Origin: an uncultured Pseudomonadales bacterium
Lineage (GTDB): Bacteria; Patescibacteriota; Microgenomatia; UBA1400; PJMF01
Assembly (NCBI GenBank): GCA_964570365.1
Contig: CAZMXT010000002.1
Span: 57,752 to 121,751, forward strand
Reading direction: 5' to 3'
DNA: 64,000 nt
In this document: positions 1,190-35,785 of the stretch, piece by piece
How the letters are laid out: each line of letters begins with the position of its first letter
Numbering within the stretch: the stretch's first letter is position 1
Notes under the pieces: model-generated
Seen by the model: the letters and a program-made list of their open reading frames with translations, nothing else
What the model was told of the DNA's origin: nothing
Database searches by the model: none
Made by a program: the position numbers and the translations under genes

Positions 1190-1765
1190 TTACTTCGTGG
1201 CAGCCTTTGCTTTTTTGACTGCGCCTTGCTTGACGGGTTTGGCGACTACTTTGCTAGCAGCTTTCTTTGGTTCTGGACTACTCTTAGCTGGTGCGTTTAC
1301 TTCAGCTTTTACTGACTTGGTAGCAGCTCTTCGGCCGTCCGCCACGCCTTGCTTGGCGGCTTTTACTCTCACTGGGTGAGTTTTCCCACTCTTTAAAGTT
1401 CCAGTCACTTCAGCTTGTTTAACAAATGAAATTTTGACCATTGGGGTGTTATCACCACGGCGATTACCAACTGGGGTAATCCGAGTAAAACCTGAGGTTC
1501 GATCACTCATGGCTGGAGCAACTCGGTCTACGAGCGTAGAAACCACGTCTCGCTTTCCAAAAACCCGATGTAACCCTCGGCGAGTTGCCAGAGTATCATC
1601 TTGAGCTTTATGGACAAGCTTATCAGCTAATCGCTTCAATACTTTGGCTTTGGCTTGAGTGGTAGTGATTTCGCCTCGTTCAGTCAAGTTGCGCAGTAAG
1701 CCCATCAACAGTGCTTTGCGTTGGTTTGAATCTCGATTGAATTTCTTATCAGCGACGCGATGTCT
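1190..1765 (-). CDS. rplQ: 50S ribosomal protein L17 with long K/A-rich C-terminal tail
   Basis: ORF 1190..1780; L17 N-terminus MRHRVADKKFNR begins at the internal Met (1765); follows rpoA; tail contains the VADGRR repeat element. Confidence 0.85.
   Translation of the reverse strand, partial: RHRVADKKFNRDSNQRKALLMGLLRNLTERGEITTTQAKAKVLKRLADKLVHKAQDDTLATRRGLHRVFGKRDVVSTLVDRVAPAMSDRTSGFTRITPVGNRRGDNTPMVKISFVKQAEVTGTLKSGKTHPVRVKAAKQGVADGRRAATKSVKAEVNAPAKSSPEPKKAASKVVAKPVKQGAVKKAKAATK
1323..1364 (-). repeat. copy 1 of a ~38-nt in-frame repeat element (GCAGCTCTTCGGCCGTCCGCCACGCCTTGCTTGGCGGC) in the rplQ tail
   Basis: Near-identical to the copies at 9017..9054 and 12486..12523; encodes AAKQGVADGRRAA. 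Confidence 0.7.
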
Positions 1766-4801: not shown

Positions 4802-5838
4802 ATGCTCTACGCCAGTCGCGATAAACCTGATTTTGTCCGCTACTTTCAAGTACTTACTGACCTGATCGCAATATTTTGGCAATTTCATCTTCAGGAAATT
4901 GAAGAGGGGAGAAGAAGTTTTTCCTCAATGGTTAATACTGAGAAATTTATAAAAGATGATGTGAGAGAATCCCCTTTAATCCAGAAGTACTGGTTCACAG
5001 TAAGCCAAAATTAAACGATGCCAGCACAGGCTTTTACCTTGAAGATGGAGAACATGAAGATATTCTCAGCTTCTATACAGACGGCATCTATCAAGAACTA
5101 AGTAAAAGCTGGAATAATTTTTTTGGTGGCTCCGAAGAAAGTGTTGGCCAGGCCAAAAAAGTAATTTCACGCTTTCTTAGGAGGAAAAAGGGACCTTATG
5201 TAGAAGACCCTTTTGTAAAGTCACTCATCAGTGAGGCAGAACTATTAGGACCACTCATCTCTCGAGTAGGTACAGCTGCAGAAGGCTACTCCTTGAGGGA
5301 TGTACTCCAGCGAGGAAGTCGCACTGGAAGTGAAGCTGCTGGCTCATTAGTGGCTATGAGAAATGTCTTTCAAAAGTATGATTTGGCTAAAGCAGCGCTG
5401 ATTATTTCAAAAGTAACGATTGATCATGTAAGTGATGTCAGATCTGGACTCACTTCTAAAGGAGAGTATCACGCTTTTGACCACAATGCCCAAACGAAAC
5501 ATCATCTAGACTTGGATCAGCTTAAATCCTATGGATTAGGCAAAGCACTCGGTTGTCCCGCGGGCCTATTACCGAGCCAGGAATGTAAAGCATATTTACA
5601 AAAAAAAGGAGTTACTCGAGAAGGTTCAATGCTAGAAGATTTTGCGAAGCAGGTGGGTGAGCGTTTCCATCGCGATGTGGAGATATGGTTTGGTAAACTA
5701 AACGGGGTAGATCAAGAGAAGTTTATCGATCCAGAACTTCTTAAACTCCTCCGCGGTGAAGTTCCTTGGGCCAAACCCGAAGGCAGTGCCCGCCTAGAAG
5801 GCGCAGCTCCTCACCCCCATTCAGAGAAGCTGGGATAA
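4802..5838 (+). pseudogene. hypothetical gene (~345 aa if joined) split by a frameshift, opposite strand to the ribosomal block
   Basis: ORF 4802..5014 (frame 2) overlaps an open frame 4960..5838 (frame 1) that has no ATG before TTG at 5293. One extra A in the AAAA run near 5005 would join them in frame. Confidence 0.4.
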
Positions 5839-8476: not shown

Positions 8477-8922
8477 GACTGAGCAGCTTCGATAGTACCA
8501 CCTTGCTGCTCAATTATTGTAGCAGCATTTTTGGAAACCGGGATACCACGGACGATCACTTTGCGACTTAAAGTACCATTATTGATAATTTTGGCTTTTC
8601 TAAAACGACCTTCAATGACTTTTTCGAGCTTCAATGTATCGAGGGTGATGATATCAGCTTTCATTTTGTCGATCTCAGATAAAGAAACTGCTGCAGCTGG
8701 ATCCAACACATTAAAACGTTTCTTACCCCTCAACATTGGTAAACGCTTAATTAAAGGTAATTGGCCACCTTCAAACCAGGCTGGAGCCTGACCACTCTTG
8801 CGAGATCGTTGACCCTTGGAACCACGACCCACCGTATGATTTCCCTTGCCAGATCCAGTGCCACGACCAAGTCGTTTGGCTGGTTTATCGACAATTTTGG
8901 TTAAGGTTTTCAGTAAAGACAT
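8473..8922 (-). CDS. rplO: 50S ribosomal protein L15
   Basis: 149 aa, G/R-rich N-terminal region typical of L15; directly follows rpsE with no rpmD between. Confidence 0.9.
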   Translation of the reverse strand: MSLLKTLTKIVDKPAKRLGRGTGSGKGNHTVGRGSKGQRSRKSGQAPAWFEGGQLPLIKRLPMLRGKKRFNVLDPAAAVSLSEIDKMKADIITLDTLKLEKVIEGRFRKAKIINNGTLSRKVIVRGIPVSKNAATIIEQQGGTIEAAQS

Positions 8923-8928
8923 ACAGAG

Positions 8929-9666
8929 CTACTTTTTGACTACTTTTTTAAGAACTTTTTTGACTACAGGCTTTTGAGTAGGAGCAGGAGTAGTCTCAGT
9001 TTTAACACCCTTTTCTGCAGCTCTCTGGCCGTCCGCCACGCTTGGCTTGGCGGCAGGTTTATTGGCTGCAGCTGCTTTTTCACTTAATTCGCGCAACTTC
9101 TTTTGCTCTTCACGCTCAATCTCAGAAATTGACTTTAAGCGAATCCCTTTCAGGGCCACGATTTTTTGAATTCGACGTAAGGCTTCAAAAGTTGCATAGA
9201 CACTCACTGACTGATTACTTGAGCCTAGGATTTTACTTGAGATGTCACGGATCCCAGCGGCTTCGACCACAGCGCGAACTGGTCCACCAGCAATGACTCC
9301 AGAACCCTTTGGGGCTGGCTTTAACATGACTCGGCCAGCACCAAGCTTGGCCACGATCGAGAAAGGGATGGTGGTTCCATCTAAAGGAACGGTAATCATT
9401 TTCTTCTTGGCTTTTTTGACACCTTTGCGAATTGCAGATTGAACATCTTTAGATTTACCAAGTCCGACACCAACGCGACCTTTGCGGTCACCCACTACCA
9501 TTAAAATTGAGAAACCCATCTTGTTGCCACCCTTGGTTTTTTTAGACACACGGGAAACTGAGATGACTTTTTCTTCAAACTCTTTATCGTCACGAGTTGC
9601 GGCAACGTTTTGAGCGACTACTTTGAGTTTTTTATCGTTAGAAATGGTATTGGTTGGATCTATCAT
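8929..9666 (-). CDS. rpsE: 30S ribosomal protein S5 with K/A/P-rich C-terminal tail
   Basis: 245 aa; S5 dsRBD and C-terminal domain; tail contains a copy of the VADGQR repeat element. Confidence 0.9.
   Translation of the reverse strand: MIDPTNTISNDKKLKVVAQNVAATRDDKEFEEKVISVSRVSKKTKGGNKMGFSILMVVGDRKGRVGVGLGKSKDVQSAIRKGVKKAKKKMITVPLDGTTIPFSIVAKLGAGRVMLKPAPKGSGVIAGGPVRAVVEAAGIRDISSKILGSSNQSVSVYATFEALRRIQKIVALKGIRLKSISEIEREEQKKLRELSEKAAAANKPAAKPSVADGQRAAEKGVKTETTPAPTQKPVVKKVLKKVVKK
9017..9054 (-). repeat. copy 2 of the repeat element in the rpsE tail
   Basis: GCAGCTCTCTGGCCGTCCGCCACGCTTGGCTTGGCGGC; encodes AAKPSVADGQRAA. Confidence 0.7.
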
Positions 9667-12466: not shown

Positions 12467-12865
12467 TTACTTTGCTTTCTTCACTGCAGTTCTCCGGCCG
12501 TCCGCCACGCTTTGCTTGGCGGCTTTTGCTTTTGGAGTTGCTTTTTTCTCACTCTTGGTAGCCTCAACAGCAACTTTTACCTCAGCTTCATTTTTCACCA
12601 CTTTCACTGTAGGTAATACACTCTCTCCACCTTTTGGATCAATCTTGGCTGTCACAATAAAACTCTTAGTCTTACTGATTGGCCGACATGATTTGATAGA
12701 GACGGTATCGCCTTCTTTTAACTCTAAGTTCTCTACGTGGCAAGCATAGTTTTTAGTCCGCTTGACGTATTTTTTATAGAGTGGATGCTGCCACTTGCGA
12801 GTTACAGTTACTGTGACAGTATTTGTATTTTTCGCTGAAGTGACGATTCCTTGAATCAATTTCAT
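12467..12865 (-). CDS. rpsQ: 30S ribosomal protein S17 with K/A-rich C-terminal tail
   Basis: 132 aa; S17 OB fold N-terminally; tail contains the VADGRR repeat element. Confidence 0.9.
12486..12523 (-). repeat. copy 3 of the repeat element in the rpsQ tail
   Basis: GCAGTTCTCCGGCCGTCCGCCACGCTTTGCTTGGCGGC; encodes [13 protein letters not shown]. Confidence 0.7.
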
Positions 12866-13489: not shown

Positions 13490-14143
13490 TTAAAGAACAG
13501 ACTCTCCCTTGTTAATCCAAACCTTGATTCCCACGTAGCCAGAACGAGTCTTGGCTGGAACCTCGTAGTAATCAATCTCAGCCCGTAAGGTCTGAGTTGG
13601 TACTGTACCTTCAAAGTATTTTTCTCTGCGACTAATTTCAGCACCAGCGATGCGGCCTGCGAGCTGGATTTTGACACCCTTGGCTCCGGCGATCATCACC
13701 TTCTCCATTGCTTGCGACACGGCTCGGCGATGTGGATATCGTTTAATTAACTGATCCACGATTCGCTCAGCCACCAACTTCGCACTCAGATCTGGCTTCT
13801 TCACTTCTTGAACTTGTAAATCTACTTTAACACGATTCTTTTTCTGCTTGGCCACGTTTAGAATTCTCTCGACATCTTTTTTGATTACCTCTAAGTTCGC
13901 TCCACCTTTACCAATCACTACGCCAGGTCGAGAAACAAAGATAATTACACTGATCATTGTCAAAGAGCGCTCAATATTAATCTGGACGATACCAGCATTG
14001 GCTAACTTTTTCCCTAAGAACTCACGCAGCTTCCGATCTTCCAACATCGTATCTGAGTAAGTACGTGGCTCGGCGAACCATCTTGATTTCCAGGTAAATA
14101 AATTACCTAAACGAAAGCTAGTCGGATTTACTTTTTGTCCCAT
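13490..14143 (-). CDS. rpsC: 30S ribosomal protein S3
   Basis: 217 aa, KH domain plus S3 C-terminal domain. Confidence 0.9.
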   Translation of the reverse strand: MGQKVNPTSFRLGNLFTWKSRWFAEPRTYSDTMLEDRKLREFLGKKLANAGIVQINIERSLTMISVIIFVSRPGVVIGKGGANLEVIKKDVERILNVAKQKKNRVKVDLQVQEVKKPDLSAKLVAERIVDQLIKRYPHRRAVSQAMEKVMIAGAKGVKIQLAGRIAGAEISRREKYFEGTVPTQTLRAEIDYYEVPAKTRSGYVGIKVWINKGESVL

Positions 14144-14149
14144 TACGAC

Positions 14150-14617
14150 TTACTCCTTACTTTTTACCTTTTCAATTTTACTTTTCTTTACTGCTACTGC
14201 TGTTTTCACAGGGGCAGCCGCTACCTTTTCCTCAATCTTGGCAGCTTCTAGAGCAACTTTTGGTTTCTTGACTGTAGCTGCTTCATCTTTGGTCTTCAAG
14301 ACCACACTGACATGACAGGTTCTTTTAATAATATTGTGAGCACGACCTCTGCTGACGGCGTTAAAACGCTTGTAGCGGGGACCTTCGTTCACAATAATAC
14401 TATCTAAAACCAAGTCGCTCACTTGATAACCATGATTGTTCACGGCATCTGCCACTGCTTGCTTCATCACTTTTGACACAACCTCAGTTGCTTTGCGCTC
14501 AATCACTGACAACTGTCGAAAGGCTTCTTCTAAGGTTAGCTTTCTGACTGCATTCGCGACCAATCTCACCTTGCGGGGAGTTTGACGAGTGTACTTTTGG
14601 GTCGCTCGAATTGTCAT
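14150..14617 (-). CDS. rplV: 50S ribosomal protein L22 with K/A-rich C-terminal tail
   Basis: 155 aa. Confidence 0.9.
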   Translation of the reverse strand: MTIRATQKYTRQTPRKVRLVANAVRKLTLEEAFRQLSVIERKATEVVSKVMKQAVADAVNNHGYQVSDLVLDSIIVNEGPRYKRFNAVSRGRAHNIIKRTCHVSVVLKTKDEAATVKKPKVALEAAKIEEKVAAAPVKTAVAVKKSKIEKVKSKE

Positions 14618-14622
14618 ATAGC

Positions 14623-14907
14623 TTATGTCTTTGCCAATACACGCTTGACCACTTTACCGTGACCACGGAAGACACGGGTTGGTGCAAACTCACCTAATTT
14701 ATGTCCGACCATTGATTCATTTATAAATACTTCCACAAAGTTCTTGCCTTGATGAACTAAAAAAGTATGACCAACAAAATCGGGAGACACCGTACAGTTA
14801 CGGCGCCAGGTTTTGATGGCAGTTTTGTCGCCCGACGCTTTTTGAGCCATGACTTTACTCAGCAGCTTAGCGTCTACGAATGGTCCTTTTTTACTTGATC
14901 TAGACAT
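14623..14907 (-). CDS. rpsS: 30S ribosomal protein S19
   Basis: 94 aa, S19-like. Confidence 0.9.
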
Positions 14908-14918
14908 AGTGTTCCAGT

Positions 14919-15752
14919 TTATTTAACGCGACGGTCTTTCAAAATATATTTATTGGTCGTCTTCTTTTTGTTACGAGTCTTGGTACCATGTGCATGCTTA
15001 CCCCATGGAGTCTTTGGATACTTCATACCTACACCACTACGACCTTCACCACCACCGTGTGGGTGTGAATCTGGGTGTTGAGCTGTACCACGAACTGTAG
15101 GACGAATACCCATGAGGCGCTTGCGACCAGCTTTTCCGAGCTTGCGATTCTTCCAATCCAGGTTTCCAACTTGGCCGATTGTAGCGAAACAGTCGCCATT
15201 TATCAATCGCACTTCTCGAGAAGGCAGAGAAATCGTCACAAATGAGCCTTCTTTGGCTTGCACCATTGCAGCTGTGCCGGCTCCACGAACGAACTGAGCA
15301 CCCTTGCCAACTCGAGTTTCAATGTTATGAATTGGCACACCAACTGGGATGTTTTTCAGAGGTAAAGCGTTTCCAGCTTTGACTTCTACATCATCGCCAG
15401 CAATCACTTCTTGACCAATTTCTAAGTTCTCTGGAGCTAAGATGTAGCGTTTTTCACCATCTTTGTAAAAGAGCAAAGCAATATTGGCAGATCGGTTTGG
15501 ATCATACTCAATTCGTTGGACCACTGCCGCAAAACCACGCTTATCACGTTTCCAATCAATGATGCGAAGTCGTTTTTTAACGCCCCCACCACGATGTCTG
15601 ACTGTGATATGACCAGAAGCACCCCGGCCCTGTCTTTTAAGATGGCCACTTTGGAGTAAGGTTTTTTCAGGACCTTCAGACGACAAATGCGCATGTCCTA
15701 CACGAATATAGTGGCGATTTGAGTTGTTGGTTGCTTTTTGCTTAATTAACAT
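14919..15752 (-). CDS. rplB: 50S ribosomal protein L2
   Basis: 277 aa, L2 signature region. Confidence 0.9.
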
Positions 15753-16069: not shown

Positions 16070-16774
16070 TTACTTCTCACTGACCTTACTTGCTTTTTTA
16101 ACTGTCTTTGTAGCTGGTTTTGCTGCTGGCTCAACTTGAGTTTCAGCCTTTTCTGCTTGCCCCAAACGCTCTTCTAACATCTTTACGGCTTCTTTAGTTA
16201 AGATTAGGACATCTGCATACGCCACTTCATAGGTATTGAGTCGTCCAGCTTGAGTCACATAGACATTTTCTAAGTTGCGCAAACTACGTAACACCAGGTT
16301 AGTTGGCTTATCTAAGACGACTAAAATGTGCTTGGCATCTGGAACCATTTTGTTCAGCATTTTTTGGGCTGAAGCGGTCTTGCCGTCTAGCTGAGCAATA
16401 TCATTTGAAATGATAATGTTTTCGACTTGAGCACTTAGCGCAGAAACAATTGCACTACGTCGCAGTGCGCTAGACATCTTTAGGTTCCAGTTTTGCAAAC
16501 CAGTGGGTCCATGAGCTATTCCTCCACCCACAAAGATGTTTGGGGTACGAGCACCATGTCGAGCATTACCGGTTCCTTTTTGCTTGAACCACTTGTGTTT
16601 GGTTCTATTGATCTCAGAACGGGTTTTGACTTTACTGGTTCCTTGGCGTTGATTGGAAAGGTAGACACGTACAGCTTGAGAAATGATTGGTGCATTTAAT
16701 TTTACACCAAACACGTCATCCCGCACTTCTAAGCTAGTTTCTTTTCCAATAGTTGAAGCAACTCTTAACTTCAT
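16070..16774 (-). CDS. rplD: 50S ribosomal protein L4 with charged C-terminal tail
   Basis: 234 aa. Confidence 0.9.
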   Translation of the reverse strand: MKLRVASTIGKETSLEVRDDVFGVKLNAPIISQAVRVYLSNQRQGTSKVKTRSEINRTKHKWFKQKGTGNARHGARTPNIFVGGGIAHGPTGLQNWNLKMSSALRRSAIVSALSAQVENIIISNDIAQLDGKTASAQKMLNKMVPDAKHILVVLDKPTNLVLRSLRNLENVYVTQAGRLNTYEVAYADVLILTKEAVKMLEERLGQAEKAETQVEPAAKPATKTVKKASKVSEK

Positions 16775-32542: not shown

Positions 32543-33529
32543 CTATAATGGCTGTGTTTCCAACTCAGCCACGATGACTCCTCTACGTAAGTAGGTCCCT
32601 TCTGGGACACAGGTGATCAATTTTAACTGATTTACCTGATAATTTTGCTCCAAAATAAAAGTTTCATCAGGCTTAACTTCTCGTTTTTCCCTCACAATAT
32701 AGGTATATCGAACGTCATCATGGGTGACGTAAATTCTATCTCCAGGTTTTAAGATCATAATTTTACTGAAAATCGAGTTGTAGCGACGAGGATTTTTAAT
32801 GCTGGGGTTATAAAACTGCCGCAAGACAGAGTGACCAAAAATCACCGGCGAGCCTAGTTGACCTGGCATAGCTGTTCCAGGGTACTGAATCAAACTGTGA
32901 TCCAAGTTGGTGCCCCCAACTCGCACCTTGGCATTCTCCACATTTAAGGTGGGAATATCAACTCGATACTCAATTTGGCTAGTACTCGTCTCACTTTCTC
33001 CAAGCTCAGGTATAGAGCTTTCGGGGAACCAGTTTGAAAGATTACTATAGTCAAGTTGGTCGTTCAAAATTGTCGGTTCAATACTAGAAACTTCTCCAGC
33101 TGAAAAAGCTTCAGCCTGATCATTGCTCCCTTGCGCCTGTACCTGAGTGACTCCAGGAATTCTCGCCTCTAGGACTTGCTCTCGTGGAATTGGTGCCAAG
33201 AGATTAGTACTGGAGAGATCAGGAGAAGTAAAAACAAAGTACGATAAGATCGGCCAAGCTGCGTTCCCGACTAAGAAAATACCCAAACTCACAAAAATAA
33301 TAGGTAAAGAGTGTGCAAAAACCCTCGCTAGCAACGGACCTTTTTTTTTAATCTTTTGGAGGTGTTGACGATCATCCTTTTCTTCTAATTTCAGGGTAGT
33401 TTGAGAGCGCAGCAAAAAGGTATCAATTTTTTGTTGCACTGTATCTAAAGGGATGTTCCCTAAAACTGCCTGACGATAAAGACTAATGAGCTTGTCTTTT
33501 GAAATTGCTCTGGTACTTGGGGAAGGCAT
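32543..33529 (-). CDS. sortase family transpeptidase
   Basis: 328 aa; N-terminal TM, C-terminal catalytic region with LITCVP (TLxTC) motif and a conserved His upstream. Confidence 0.75.
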   Translation of the reverse strand: MPSPSTRAISKDKLISLYRQAVLGNIPLDTVQQKIDTFLLRSQTTLKLEEKDDRQHLQKIKKKGPLLARVFAHSLPIIFVSLGIFLVGNAAWPILSYFVFTSPDLSSTNLLAPIPREQVLEARIPGVTQVQAQGSNDQAEAFSAGEVSSIEPTILNDQLDYSNLSNWFPESSIPELGESETSTSQIEYRVDIPTLNVENAKVRVGGTNLDHSLIQYPGTAMPGQLGSPVIFGHSVLRQFYNPSIKNPRRYNSIFSKIMILKPGDRIYVTHDDVRYTYIVREKREVKPDETFILEQNYQVNQLKLITCVPEGTYLRRGVIVAELETQPL

Positions 33530-33547
33530 AAATTAGCACTATTATAA

Positions 33548-35785
33548 TTACTCAGTAATCGTAATGGTAATTTTTTCGAGTTGCTTTGGTACTGATTGGG
33601 TGATTAAGGCAAAGAACTTTGGCCAACGGCTCACCTGAACTGACTCTATCTGAGGCTTTCCTTGCAAAGTCGCGACTGCCACTTTTTCTGCTTGGCCTGC
33701 TACTTCTTTTTTCCAGTCTTCCACTTGAACTACCGGTTGGACAACTGAGGAGAGATTTACATTTAAAGTCACTTGCGCAGAAGTGGTGGAGCTATTTGCT
33801 GGTGCAGATAAAATCTGCGGGTCTTTCTCGATCAACTTATAATTTGCTGGCGCCTGAGCTGACAAGATAGCGACTGCCAACGGCTTCAAATCTTCAGGCG
33901 AGTACGAGAGCGCCTCAGCTTCCATTTTTAGAGAAAGATCAAAGGTATTTGTTTCTTTGCCTACTTCTGCATTGTACTTGGTTTCCAAAACTTTTACTCG
34001 GTTCGTGGGAACAATAAAACGACCTTCAGCTGCTTGAGCATTCAGCTCAGTTGCAGCCTGATCACTGAGCTCTTTTCGCAGCGTAGCGAGTAAACTATCT
34101 CGGTCCTTTTGAGAAACCGCTCGGATTTCTCGACTGGTGCCGCCAGCTAACTGAGCATTCGTTCGAGCAACGTAGGTCTCCAGAGAGAAACTCTCGATTG
34201 TCAGCTCTGTTTGTGCCGGGATATTAGACGTATCACCGATCTCTGCTGCGGTAACCCCTGCTTCGCTAGTGCCTGGCTTGGTTTCGAAGTTTGTCCCAGT
34301 ACTTGCAGAGGCAACAGTGACTGATTCATCGAGGGTAAACTTCAGCGTCTTACTTGCCAATACAGTTCCTGCCGAAAAAGATTTAGCGCTGGAGGTTCGA
34401 TTAAATATCGTAATCTTTCCCTTTGCCTTATCTCCAATGATCTTTTTTCCAGTGGAATCAGCCGTCTTTTGACCTGAAACTTCTTTTTTCACCACATCGG
34501 CTTTTAAGACTCTTTTCTCTACATCACTACTGACCGCCTGAGAGTCTAAAATTAATTGAATTTCTTGACTGACTGGCTGAGTGCGAAGGCGAACTATAAA
34601 GTTGGCAGAGATCATGTTCCTGGCAGCAACGGTAGAAAAAAGAGCCAGTAGAGCGAGCCCAGTGATCACACCGATGATGACGAGCAGGATTGGTCGACGA
34701 TGAAAGAGATGCAACCTTCCATGACTAGGGACAGCGTCTTCGTAGGCATCTACATCTAGTTCTGCAGCAGTGGTAGCGTCGTGGGAATGAATAGAGTCTA
34801 ATGATACAGGAATCCCAAAAGTGGATGCCTGCGTATTGTGTGAGACAACAACATCTGGAACAGCAGTTGCTTCTTTCCTTTCAACTCTCTTGAAGTTATC
34901 TGGCACAGCTGTTCCCAGTCTTCCTGGTTCAGAGACTTCGTCCTCAATTTTGGAGTCATTCGCAACTGACAATTCTGCTTCGCCAAGCTCCCCATCCTCG
35001 GGAGAGGTAGTCTCAGCGATCAAATGATGAGCCTGAGCAACCGCTTTTCCACCAGTCTCCACCATCACCTCCAAAAACTTTTCAGGTGGATAGACCTCTA
35101 CTATGGGTGGGTGCATAAAAGGATGATGCTTCGCCCATTCGTAACCAAGGAGTTGTTGCTGAGTCGCCACTACTTCTTCGGCAGATAGAGTGCTGGAGAA
35201 GAGCAGAAACTTGGTTGGAAATACTTTTTCGGTAAAGTGAGCAAATGCCTCCGTTAAATCTGAGACGCCATCACCAGACCGACCAACTTGCTCAGTTTGC
35301 AAAATCTGCCCACTTTTGACTAAAGAAGCAAAAACTGCATGAGCAGTCAACTCAATTAGGAAAAAATGCTGCTGCGGTTCTGAGTTGTGAGCTAAGTACT
35401 GAACTAAGGCTTCAGAGGTCACCACAAAGCCAATTGCTTCTAACGATAATTCTTTAACGAGTTTTTGGAAAAGTGGTTTACGAATCTGCTGAATTCCTTC
35501 TTTGTCTACCCATTCAGGGTTCAGGGCAAAGAGTGCTTGCTTCACATTTTCTGACTCTTTCCCTAGTTCCTGCAAACTCAGATCAACCGCCTCTACGCAT
35601 TGCTCGTCAGTTTGCCATTGATGGGGTGAGGATTGAGTGACAACTTTTACTGCTCCATTGAGCACCTGCCACAAAACGGCTTGAACCTGACCATCTGCTA
35701 AGTGAATCGCAAAAAATAATGGGGTAGGAGTTTCTTCCTGATTTGATAACAACTGAGGGAGCTTCATGATCATAGGTCCTATCAT
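33548..35785 (-). CDS. membrane-anchored protein: N-terminal FtsA/PilM-like (degenerate) actin-fold domain, one TM helix, ~360-aa extracytoplasmic region
   Basis: N-terminal FFAIHLADGQVQAV resembles phosphate-1, FFLIELTAHAVFASL replaces DxGGGTT, and ETGGKAV resembles the adenosine motif; the TM helix begins LLVIIGVITGLALLALF. Confidence 0.45.
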   Translation of the reverse strand: MIGPMIMKLPQLLSNQEETPTPLFFAIHLADGQVQAVLWQVLNGAVKVVTQSSPHQWQTDEQCVEAVDLSLQELGKESENVKQALFALNPEWVDKEGIQQIRKPLFQKLVKELSLEAIGFVVTSEALVQYLAHNSEPQQHFFLIELTAHAVFASLVKSGQILQTEQVGRSGDGVSDLTEAFAHFTEKVFPTKFLLFSSTLSAEEVVATQQQLLGYEWAKHHPFMHPPIVEVYPPEKFLEVMVETGGKAVAQAHHLIAETTSPEDGELGEAELSVANDSKIEDEVSEPGRLGTAVPDNFKRVERKEATAVPDVVVSHNTQASTFGIPVSLDSIHSHDATTAAELDVDAYEDAVPSHGRLHLFHRRPILLVIIGVITGLALLALFSTVAARNMISANFIVRLRTQPVSQEIQLILDSQAVSSDVEKRVLKADVVKKEVSGQKTADSTGKKIIGDKAKGKITIFNRTSSAKSFSAGTVLASKTLKFTLDESVTVASASTGTNFETKPGTSEAGVTAAEIGDTSNIPAQTELTIESFSLETYVARTNAQLAGGTSREIRAVSQKDRDSLLATLRKELSDQAATELNAQAAEGRFIVPTNRVKVLETKYNAEVGKETNTFDLSLKMEAEALSYSPEDLKPLAVAILSAQAPANYKLIEKDPQILSAPANSSTTSAQVTLNVNLSSVVQPVVQVEDWKKEVAGQAEKVAVATLQGKPQIESVQVSRWPKFFALITQSVPKQLEKITITITE

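Follow-up and report, generated by a model that had tools for sequence, protein, structure and literature searches.

The stretch of DNA considered here, referred to below as the window, comprises 64,000 nucleotides (nt) of contig CAZMXT010000002.1 (assembly GCA_964570365.1, positions 57,752 to 121,751) from an uncultured bacterium of the Patescibacteriota (Microgenomatia). Its open reading frame (ORF) map shows a ribosomal protein cluster on the minus strand, of the type found in the Candidate Phyla Radiation (CPR): rpsI, rplM, rplQ, and rpoA, and further along rpsE, rpsQ, and rplW, with no rpmD. Three genes of this cluster carry one copy each of a 36-nt element within the sequence encoding the C-terminal tail of the protein. 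In rplQ (L17; 1190..1768, minus strand, 192 aa), whose tail is rich in Lys and Ala from about residue 117, the element lies at 1324..1359; in rpsE (S5; 8929..9666, minus strand, 245 aa) it is found at 9018..9053; and in rpsQ (S17; 12467..12865, minus strand, 132 aa) it occupies 12487..12522, near the end of the tail. All three copies are on the coding (minus) strand and share one reading frame. The encoded peptides are (A)AKQGVADGRRA(A) in L17 (rplQ copy, AAKQGVADGRRAA) and (A)AKPSVADGQRA(A) in S5 (rpsE copy, AAKPSVADGQRAA), and all three inserts fall within an alanine codon (GCN), just after its G. The ORF map and the translations agree with the first-pass annotation of this DNA, which had reported a shared segment in Lys/Ala-rich tails with the same orientation and frame.

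How far does the similarity between the three tails go? The window contains exactly three occurrences of the pattern GGCCGTCCGCCACGC (1333-1347, 9027-9041, and 12496-12510). In dinucleotide-preserving shuffles, with up to three mismatches allowed, it gives a mean of 0.40 matches, and three matches were reached in none of 100 shuffles. The 28-nt pattern GCCGCCAAGCNNNGCGTGGCGGACGGCC is likewise found three times, against 0.00 expected from shuffles, and the earlier description of a conserved DNA element of about 38 nt in the rplQ, rpsE, and rpsQ tails is thus confirmed. The nucleotide similarity of one tail to another is limited to 38-42 nt (89-93% identity), and no significant similarity is found in the flanks beyond this stretch. 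A covariance model, R1, was built from an alignment of 11 copies from the window and from other loci; it scores the copies in rplQ, rpsE, and rpsQ at 59.3 (E=3e-14), 60.8, and 61.5 bits, respectively. With filters off, R1 finds no fourth copy in the window, the next best site scoring 11 bits compared with 59-61 for the copies, and the original impression by eye that there are no others was correct. The density is three copies in about 80 kb of the window's genome. A possible decayed partial copy, corresponding to the left half of the unit, is located at 1218..1240 (minus strand) in the L17 tail, in frame with the rplQ copy (KPVKQGAV), where 18 of 23 positions match 1341-1363. A repeat search reports this match with an 11-nt exact core at a distance of 123 nt from the rplQ copy, and R1 does not call it; the match is weak and may represent either a decayed copy or chance. 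The S17 and L22 tails also resemble each other over 36 nt (83%), but at E=0.5 this is no more than chance would give, and the match was rejected.

The family consensus of the unit is CCGCCAAGCGAAGCGTGGCGGACGGCCGGAGAGCTG, with a mean column identity of 94% among the 11 aligned copies. Its first 21 nt form an imperfect hairpin, CCGCCA-A-GC-(GAA or GTA)-GC-G-TGGCGG, and the remaining 15 nt are a conserved tail, ACGGCCGGAGAGCTG. The hairpin CCGCCA-A-GC-NNN-GC-G-TGGCGG, with a stem of 6+2 base pairs and a loop of 3 nt, is predicted in every copy; in the window its outer arms lie at 1354-1359 and 1339-1344 (rplQ), 9048-9053 and 9033-9038 (rpsE), and 12517-12522 and 12502-12507 (rpsQ), all on the minus strand. 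The CCGCCA/TGGCGG inverted repeat noticed in the first reading is therefore present and folds as predicted, with an energy that is ordinary for its composition (z between -0.3 and -2.2). In copies from other contigs, the loop has the bases GAA or GTA, which makes GCGAAGC or GCGTAGC, known as the classic and very stable GNA mini-hairpin. In the window copies, the loop has drifted and reads AAG, CAA, or AAA. On the reverse strand, CGTC is found immediately 5' of the stem, with one base in common; read on the forward strand, this is GACG in nine of the 11 copies and GATG in the other two. The minus-strand segment GTGGCGGACGG (1339-1349, 9033-9043, and 12502-12512) is presumably identical over its 11 bases to a conserved segment of 16S rRNA (about 98-108 in E. 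coli), which is probably a coincidence; the window contains no rRNA gene. The element has no match in Rfam.

The unit stands apart in composition from the DNA around it. The copies have a GC content of 67-74%, compared with 44% for the window and 41% for the third codon positions of its genes, and their codons are minority codons, falling in the 2nd-6th percentile of all 11-codon windows. All six frames of the consensus are free of stop codons, in tandem arrangement too; such freedom is seen in 49% of shuffles of the same composition and in 1.6% for genomic composition. Variation among copies follows neither the peptide nor the fold. The window copies differ from each other at 3-4 of 36 positions, with four non-synonymous differences (Q/P, S/G, R/Q, and T/A) and one synonymous (CGG/CGA), the reverse of the pattern expected from selection on a peptide. 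In the stem, the 11 copies show no compensatory pairs, and all five substitutions break a pair, a covariation result that is negative or carries no information. Each window copy is 2-3 changes away from the inter-genome consensus. This star-like divergence without homogenisation agrees with independent descent of the copies from a source resembling the consensus and with subsequent neutral decay, and not with continuing gene conversion between tails or selection on the individual copies. A copying process that is sequence-specific best accounts for the close similarity of copies from different genomes.

Is the unit confined to ribosomal protein genes? The first-pass annotation had suggested a search of related DNA, and a scan of metagenome contigs with CAAGCNNNGCGTGGCGGACGGCC returned 17 stretches. 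Eight of these, from other CPR contigs of low GC content (37-49%), contain the whole unit with identical ends; the remaining nine, from contigs of 57-74% GC, match the pattern only and are read as chance matches. Units in separate low-GC contigs are 92-97% identical to the consensus, and over the window and the other loci the R1 scores are bimodal, true copies scoring 43-64 bits and everything else at most 11 bits. Among contigs of species-representative genomes, a single match was found, in a Lacunisphaera contig of 67% GC, and it is read as chance. Two scans of viral contigs yielded either no match or matches to the hairpin half alone, likewise read as chance. A plasmid search found no match to the element, a protein search with the concatenated motif peptide found nothing at E<=10, and the last 30 residues of the S17 tail have no match among 1.84 billion representative proteins.

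At least eight copies are present in contigs other than the window, and six of the nine distinct loci of the family lie inside ORFs. The copy in valS, near the C-terminus of valyl-tRNA synthetase (ValRS), is in frame +3, as are the window copies, and encodes ESAKRSVADGRRAN. In idi (locus L022, 10810-10845), within the NUDIX domain region of isopentenyl-diphosphate isomerase (IDI) and in a cluster of mevalonate-pathway genes, the unit is read in frame +1, a third reading frame. A gene for a DUF4012 membrane protein of 1005 aa carries it in reverse orientation and in frame (L018, 1716-1751; peptide RQLSGRPPGFAL). Between lysS and serS, units are arranged head-to-tail with a 36-nt period in an array of 2.8 or 3.8 units (L013, 4711-4820; L015, 2648-2793), the first of which supplies the last three codons of lysS (RQA) and its TAG stop. 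At 691 aa, the lysyl-tRNA synthetase bearing the array is unusually long, which is due to an extension at its C-terminus. Two further sites, L016 and L017, are outside any ORF of at least 70 aa and come from contigs of 37-38% GC.

Which organisms carry the family? For the ValRS with the element, the named relatives are Gottesmanbacteria, Chisholmbacteria, Pacebacteria, and a Parcubacteria-group bacterium; for the window S17, they are a Patescibacteria-group bacterium, Pacebacteria, and Woesebacteria. The organism of the window was found in the JGI samples Ga0163154 and Ga0163144, and the bulk of the other contigs with the element come from that sample series. Cluster members of the valS, idi, and DUF4012 copies all share one contig of 322,527 nt (Ga0163147_10000005), which assigns the three copies to a single species. 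L016 and L017, the latter from a different sample series, most likely come from other organisms. Tetranucleotide correlation is as high between species known to differ as among the window's own chunks, and neither joins the other element-bearing contigs to the genome of the window nor separates them from it.

Comparison with orthologues indicates that the unit is an addition to older genes. The motif is absent from all 119 other S17 homologues listed; 100 of the 120 are at most 85 aa long, and the tailed ones bear unrelated Lys/Glu/Ala tails. The closest S17 orthologues, at 77 aa, lack the tail of about 55 aa seen in the window protein, which makes the tail itself recent. The S5 proteins of three relatives, 72-76% identical, end in a Lys/Ala tail that lacks the element and are 232-236 aa long; the window S5, at 245 aa, comes to 233 aa when the 12 inserted residues are subtracted. 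Thus, the look at orthologous tails that had been suggested at the outset finds both S17 and S5 without the element, and no copies are present in 57 kb of the relatives' ribosomal protein operons. L17 of one relative is 179 aa long, compared with 192 aa in the window. The motif is also absent from all 119 other ValRS homologues listed. In IDI, 12 residues fail to align with solved structures, and their removal restores the canonical FGGR-x7-NPxEV spacing. The ValRS C-termini of 40 orthologues place the element in a linker of variable length, where the alignment is ambiguous as an empty site, and the DNA of the S5 tail is too diverged from that of relatives for the insertion point to be placed.

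The family is changing now, as is seen from copy-number variants and a polymorphism. The number of exact 12-residue units in tandem is one or two among population variants of the DUF4012 protein (P0250-P0257); the lysS-serS array differs between two samples, with 2.8 and 3.8 units; and the valS copy shows a V-to-L polymorphism.

These observations make it likely that the element belongs to a dispersed family of 36-nt (12-codon) GC-rich repeats of Microgenomates-type CPR bacteria and is a non-autonomous, selfish mini-element resembling REP (repetitive extragenic palindromic) repeats and the palindromic elements of Rickettsia (RPE). The observations show the family itself, its fixed ends, its varied contexts, its absence from orthologues, its live variation in copy number, and the lack of constraint on peptide or structure. 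A fixed 36-nt unit occurs at unrelated sites, in either orientation and with tandem expansion, and persists where a change in length is tolerated, namely in C-terminal tails, an interdomain linker, and a loop.

How might such a unit spread? New copies of the fixed unit would arise at unrelated sites and could grow locally into head-to-tail arrays. Since the length of the unit is a multiple of three and none of its six frames contains a stop, an insertion adds 12 residues and leaves the gene unbroken. Of these insertions, selection would then keep only those in parts of the protein that tolerate them, for example disordered tails, linkers, and loops. In the window, the tolerated sites would be the Lys/Ala-rich C-terminal extensions of L17, S5, and S17, and the frame that was kept would be the one that gives a basic, Ala-rich peptide (AK.SVADGRRA) like the tail itself. 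The hairpin with its flanking tag may be recognised by a trans-acting enzyme, for example a single-strand-DNA transposase of the HUH/Y1 type, as proposed for REPs; alternatively, copies might arise by template switching. Growth of the arrays could occur by slippage. For the ribosome, the unit would have no function.

Several points weigh against a selfish mobile repeat. No transposase gene is found in the 64-kb window or beside any copy in the fetched loci, and neither a target-site duplication nor a clear target motif is seen. No strict empty site, that is, the same locus in the same species lacking the element, was recovered; the host regions are hypervariable, and identity to even the nearest orthologues is only about 70-79%. 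The density of three copies per about 80 kb is low relative to classical REP families, and the stop-free frames, at 49% of shuffles, are unremarkable for the base composition. Moreover, the placement of the three window copies, all of them in ribosomal protein tails and sharing frame and orientation, is far from random and needs strong filtering after insertion, target preference, or local copying. Random insertion with filtering can explain the frame, given that frame +3 yields a basic, Ala-rich, tail-like peptide, and it can explain the location, as essential genes take inserts only in their disordered parts. No less possible is that Lys-Ala coding sequence is a preferred target, or that insertion into highly transcribed DNA is strand-specific. 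The placement also leaves some room, with a low probability, for a frame-neutral 12-codon module that is specific to CPR bacteria, favours or is kept in the Lys/Ala extensions of ribosomal proteins, and helps to build them, or for a co-opted common tag on L17, S5, and S17, acting as peptide or as mRNA hairpin.

Could the unit instead have spread without transposition? It might have arisen once in one Lys/Ala-rich tail, with gene conversion or ectopic recombination carrying it into the other two, which are similar low-complexity sequences. This would account for three copies in similar tails, in one frame and orientation, within 12 kb, and for five extra bases on the left (AAAAG) shared by the S17 and L17 copies and CAG on the right shared by the S17 and S5 copies. 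However, units with identical ends are found in valS, idi, the DUF4012 gene, and non-coding DNA, none of which is homologous to the tails; the window copies are not homogenised, each being as near to the inter-genome consensus as to its neighbours; and the similarity of their flanks is at chance level. Copying between tails is therefore an unlikely origin. The first-pass annotation had offered a small in-frame repeat spreading by gene conversion, and of this the repeat stands, with copies in unrelated genes, three frames, both orientations, and non-coding DNA, whereas gene conversion between tails is not supported, and neither is a recent duplication of a tail segment. Lower still is the probability that the repeat is due to chance or is a by-product of low-complexity Lys/Ala coding sequence, which is close to negligible, the pattern counts and the R1 scan having already refuted this explanation. 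The tails are indeed compositionally biased, but the shuffles do not yield what is observed three times, the element is GC-rich with minority codons, unlike the AAA/GCA-rich tails around it, and it recurs in independent assemblies and samples.

Two rival readings give the segment a function, in the protein or in the nucleic acid. One proposal is a peptide module, in which AK.SVADGRRA serves as a short linear motif of L17, S5, and S17 for docking of an assembly factor or a modification enzyme. The frame common to the three window copies and the valS copy is consistent with this, as is the constancy in these copies of VADG and of the flanking AK and R-A residues. Yet the differences are mostly non-synonymous and synonymous sites are frozen, so that peptide selection fails to explain the synonymous identity, as had been argued from the start. 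Orthologues lack the motif, two other frames of the unit are in use elsewhere and some copies are in non-coding DNA, the valS copy varies between V and L, and protein searches with the peptide found nothing; a conserved linear motif was accordingly rejected as a class, and a docking function is very unlikely. Slightly better placed, though still improbable, is a cis-acting RNA or DNA signal of ribosomal protein operons, such as a site of mRNA processing or stability, a ribosome pause, or an antisense terminator. Every copy has a stable hairpin of 6+2 base pairs, and among the window copies the apical loop and the unit's 3' tail vary but the stem does not. The plus strand reads GGCGGCTTTTGCTTTT and GGCGGCTTTTAC, with a T-rich run after the hairpin in two copies. 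In E. coli, rpsQ ends the S10 operon and rplQ ends the alpha operon, a layout that would suit such a signal. Against this, stem changes across the family break pairs without compensation, the folding energy is not exceptional, and there is no Rfam match, results that also speak against the RNA structure or binding site under selection proposed in the first reading and led to the rejection of a structured cis-regulatory RNA. The terminator scan misses the hairpin of the element; its lone overlapping hit (12518-12542) is a different stem, the total is not above that of shuffles, and the terminator and promoter scan of the window shows no excess. Furthermore, the element is within translated sequence, the operons of relatives work without it, and the unit is found in unrelated genes in either orientation.

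Other features of the cluster deserve mention. Extensions rich in Lys, Ala, and Glu are found in the S17 tail (12470-12640), the L22 tail (14150-14290), the S9 N-terminus (620-745), and the L4 tail (16070-16170). The gene rpmD (L30) is missing between rpsE and rplO in the window (8922-8929) and in the relatives L027 and L028, a loss typical of CPR bacteria; in the relative L029 this interval holds two ORFs without annotation (117 and 62 aa). On the opposite (plus) strand of the window, between map and infA, lies an ORF of 181 aa without a Pfam match (5293-5838). As map and infA are adjacent in L027, this ORF looks like a lineage-specific gene insertion. In L029, a gene with SLFN/AlbA_2 and HATPase_c_4 domains (13904-15403), possibly related to defence, splits the cluster between adk and map. 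Elsewhere in the window, a sortase-domain protein (32543-33529) adjoins a protein of 745 aa without a Pfam match (33548-35785), which may be a sortase substrate.

If the unit is indeed a selfish repeat, small and reduced CPR genomes host active miniature repeats that lengthen essential proteins, including ribosomal proteins, in exact steps of 12 residues without breaking them. Such repeats would be a concrete source for part of the lineage-specific length variation in the ribosomal protein tails of CPR bacteria, and they add one more phylum to the short list of those with in-frame REP/RPE-like elements. There is also a warning for annotation: peptide segments that are identical at the nucleotide level in unrelated proteins can be selfish DNA rather than motifs. 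With its sharp ends, defined hairpin, and live polymorphism in copy number, the family might serve as a small test case for the movement of palindromic repeats that have no transposase of their own. In the literature searched, no report was found of such an element in CPR/Patescibacteria or in ribosomal protein tails.

How does the unit compare with known systems? Three classes of repeat were considered and rejected. Miniature inverted-repeat transposable elements are 70-300 bp long with terminal inverted repeats of 15-30 bp and a target-site duplication, whereas the unit has 36 nt, an internal inverted repeat, and no flanking duplication. CRISPR repeats are separated by unique spacers of similar length, and here units either follow one another directly every 36 nt or stand alone inside genes. 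DNA uptake sequences (USS/DUS) occur about once per kb in both orientations, and the genome of the window has only its three copies in about 80 kb.

Closer parallels are found among short palindromic repeats that enter genes. RPE-1, reportedly described by Ogata and co-workers in 2000, is said to be a selfish palindromic repeat found in frame in coding genes and tolerated in surface or loop regions of proteins. At about 100-150 bp it reportedly encodes 30-50 residues, compared with 12 for the 36-nt unit, and the likeness is one of description. In the same manner, the unit is in frame in intact ORFs for L17, S5, S17, ValRS, IDI, and the DUF4012 protein, and orthologues lack it. The small dispersed repeats (SDR) of cyanobacteria, reportedly described by Elhai and co-workers in 2008, are said to be shorter than 40 nt, apparently mobile, with short inverted repeats, located both between and inside genes, and without a known transposase; they differ from the unit in sequence, length, and host phylum. 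The GC clusters of yeast mitochondria are GC-rich palindromic mini-inserts in an AT-richer genome, and an optional one is in frame in VAR1, a ribosomal protein gene. These clusters belong to a eukaryotic organelle and are unrelated to the unit in sequence, so that the parallel is an analogy only.

REP elements and their paired forms, REPINs, are mobilised by RAYT tyrosine transposases of the HUH/Y1 type (Bertels and Rainey 2011, PMC3116915). Like REPs, the unit is a short hairpin repeat with a conserved unpaired flank, a conservation consistent with recognition by a trans-acting enzyme, and the two probably work alike. In size it is a repeated, short imperfect palindrome within the 20-40 bp range of REPs (36 nt, with a stem of 6+2 base pairs). 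However, REPs are mostly extragenic, carry a GTAG tag, form inverted pairs, reach high copy number, and flank the RAYT gene (PMC3116915). None of the RAYT-REP hallmarks (GTAG tag, inverted pairs, high copy number, or a flanked RAYT) was found in the window or the fetched loci. The three window copies and six of the nine family loci are intragenic, and no locus has an inverted pair, multi-copy sites being direct head-to-tail arrays.

A close resemblance is to the super-family of REPs tagged by CGTC, which includes the intragenic, in-frame RPE-4 and RPE-6 of Rickettsia conorii and has no known transposase (Di Nocera et al. 2013, PMC3733652). Both these repeats and the unit are G+C-rich imperfect palindromes of 20-40 bp (PMC3733652), the unit with a CGTC-like tetranucleotide by the stem as a possible counterpart of the tag, both are found in frame within ORFs, where they add residues to apparently functional proteins, and for neither is a dedicated transposase known. 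In the described families, the tag is an unpaired CGTC, TGTC, or CCTC at one end of the palindrome; the unit has CGTC, one base of which belongs to the stem. The differences extend to the fold and the arrangement. The four CGTC families have a stem of 8-9 bp that starts with A/T pairs, a loop of 4-5 nt, and a CCA tail (PMC3733652), whereas the stem of the unit starts with C-G pairs and is followed by a non-palindromic tail of 15 nt, with a loop of 3 nt. CGTC families are mostly head-to-head dimers (PMC3733652); the unit forms head-to-tail arrays, and no inverted dimers were seen. Patescibacteria/CPR are not among the reported hosts of CGTC families (PMC3733652). The 36-nt unit fails several defining features of the families described so far and is functionally like the intragenic REP/RPE repeats, and so it takes its place among the small palindromic selfish in-frame repeats, not as a new category but as a clean example in a new lineage.

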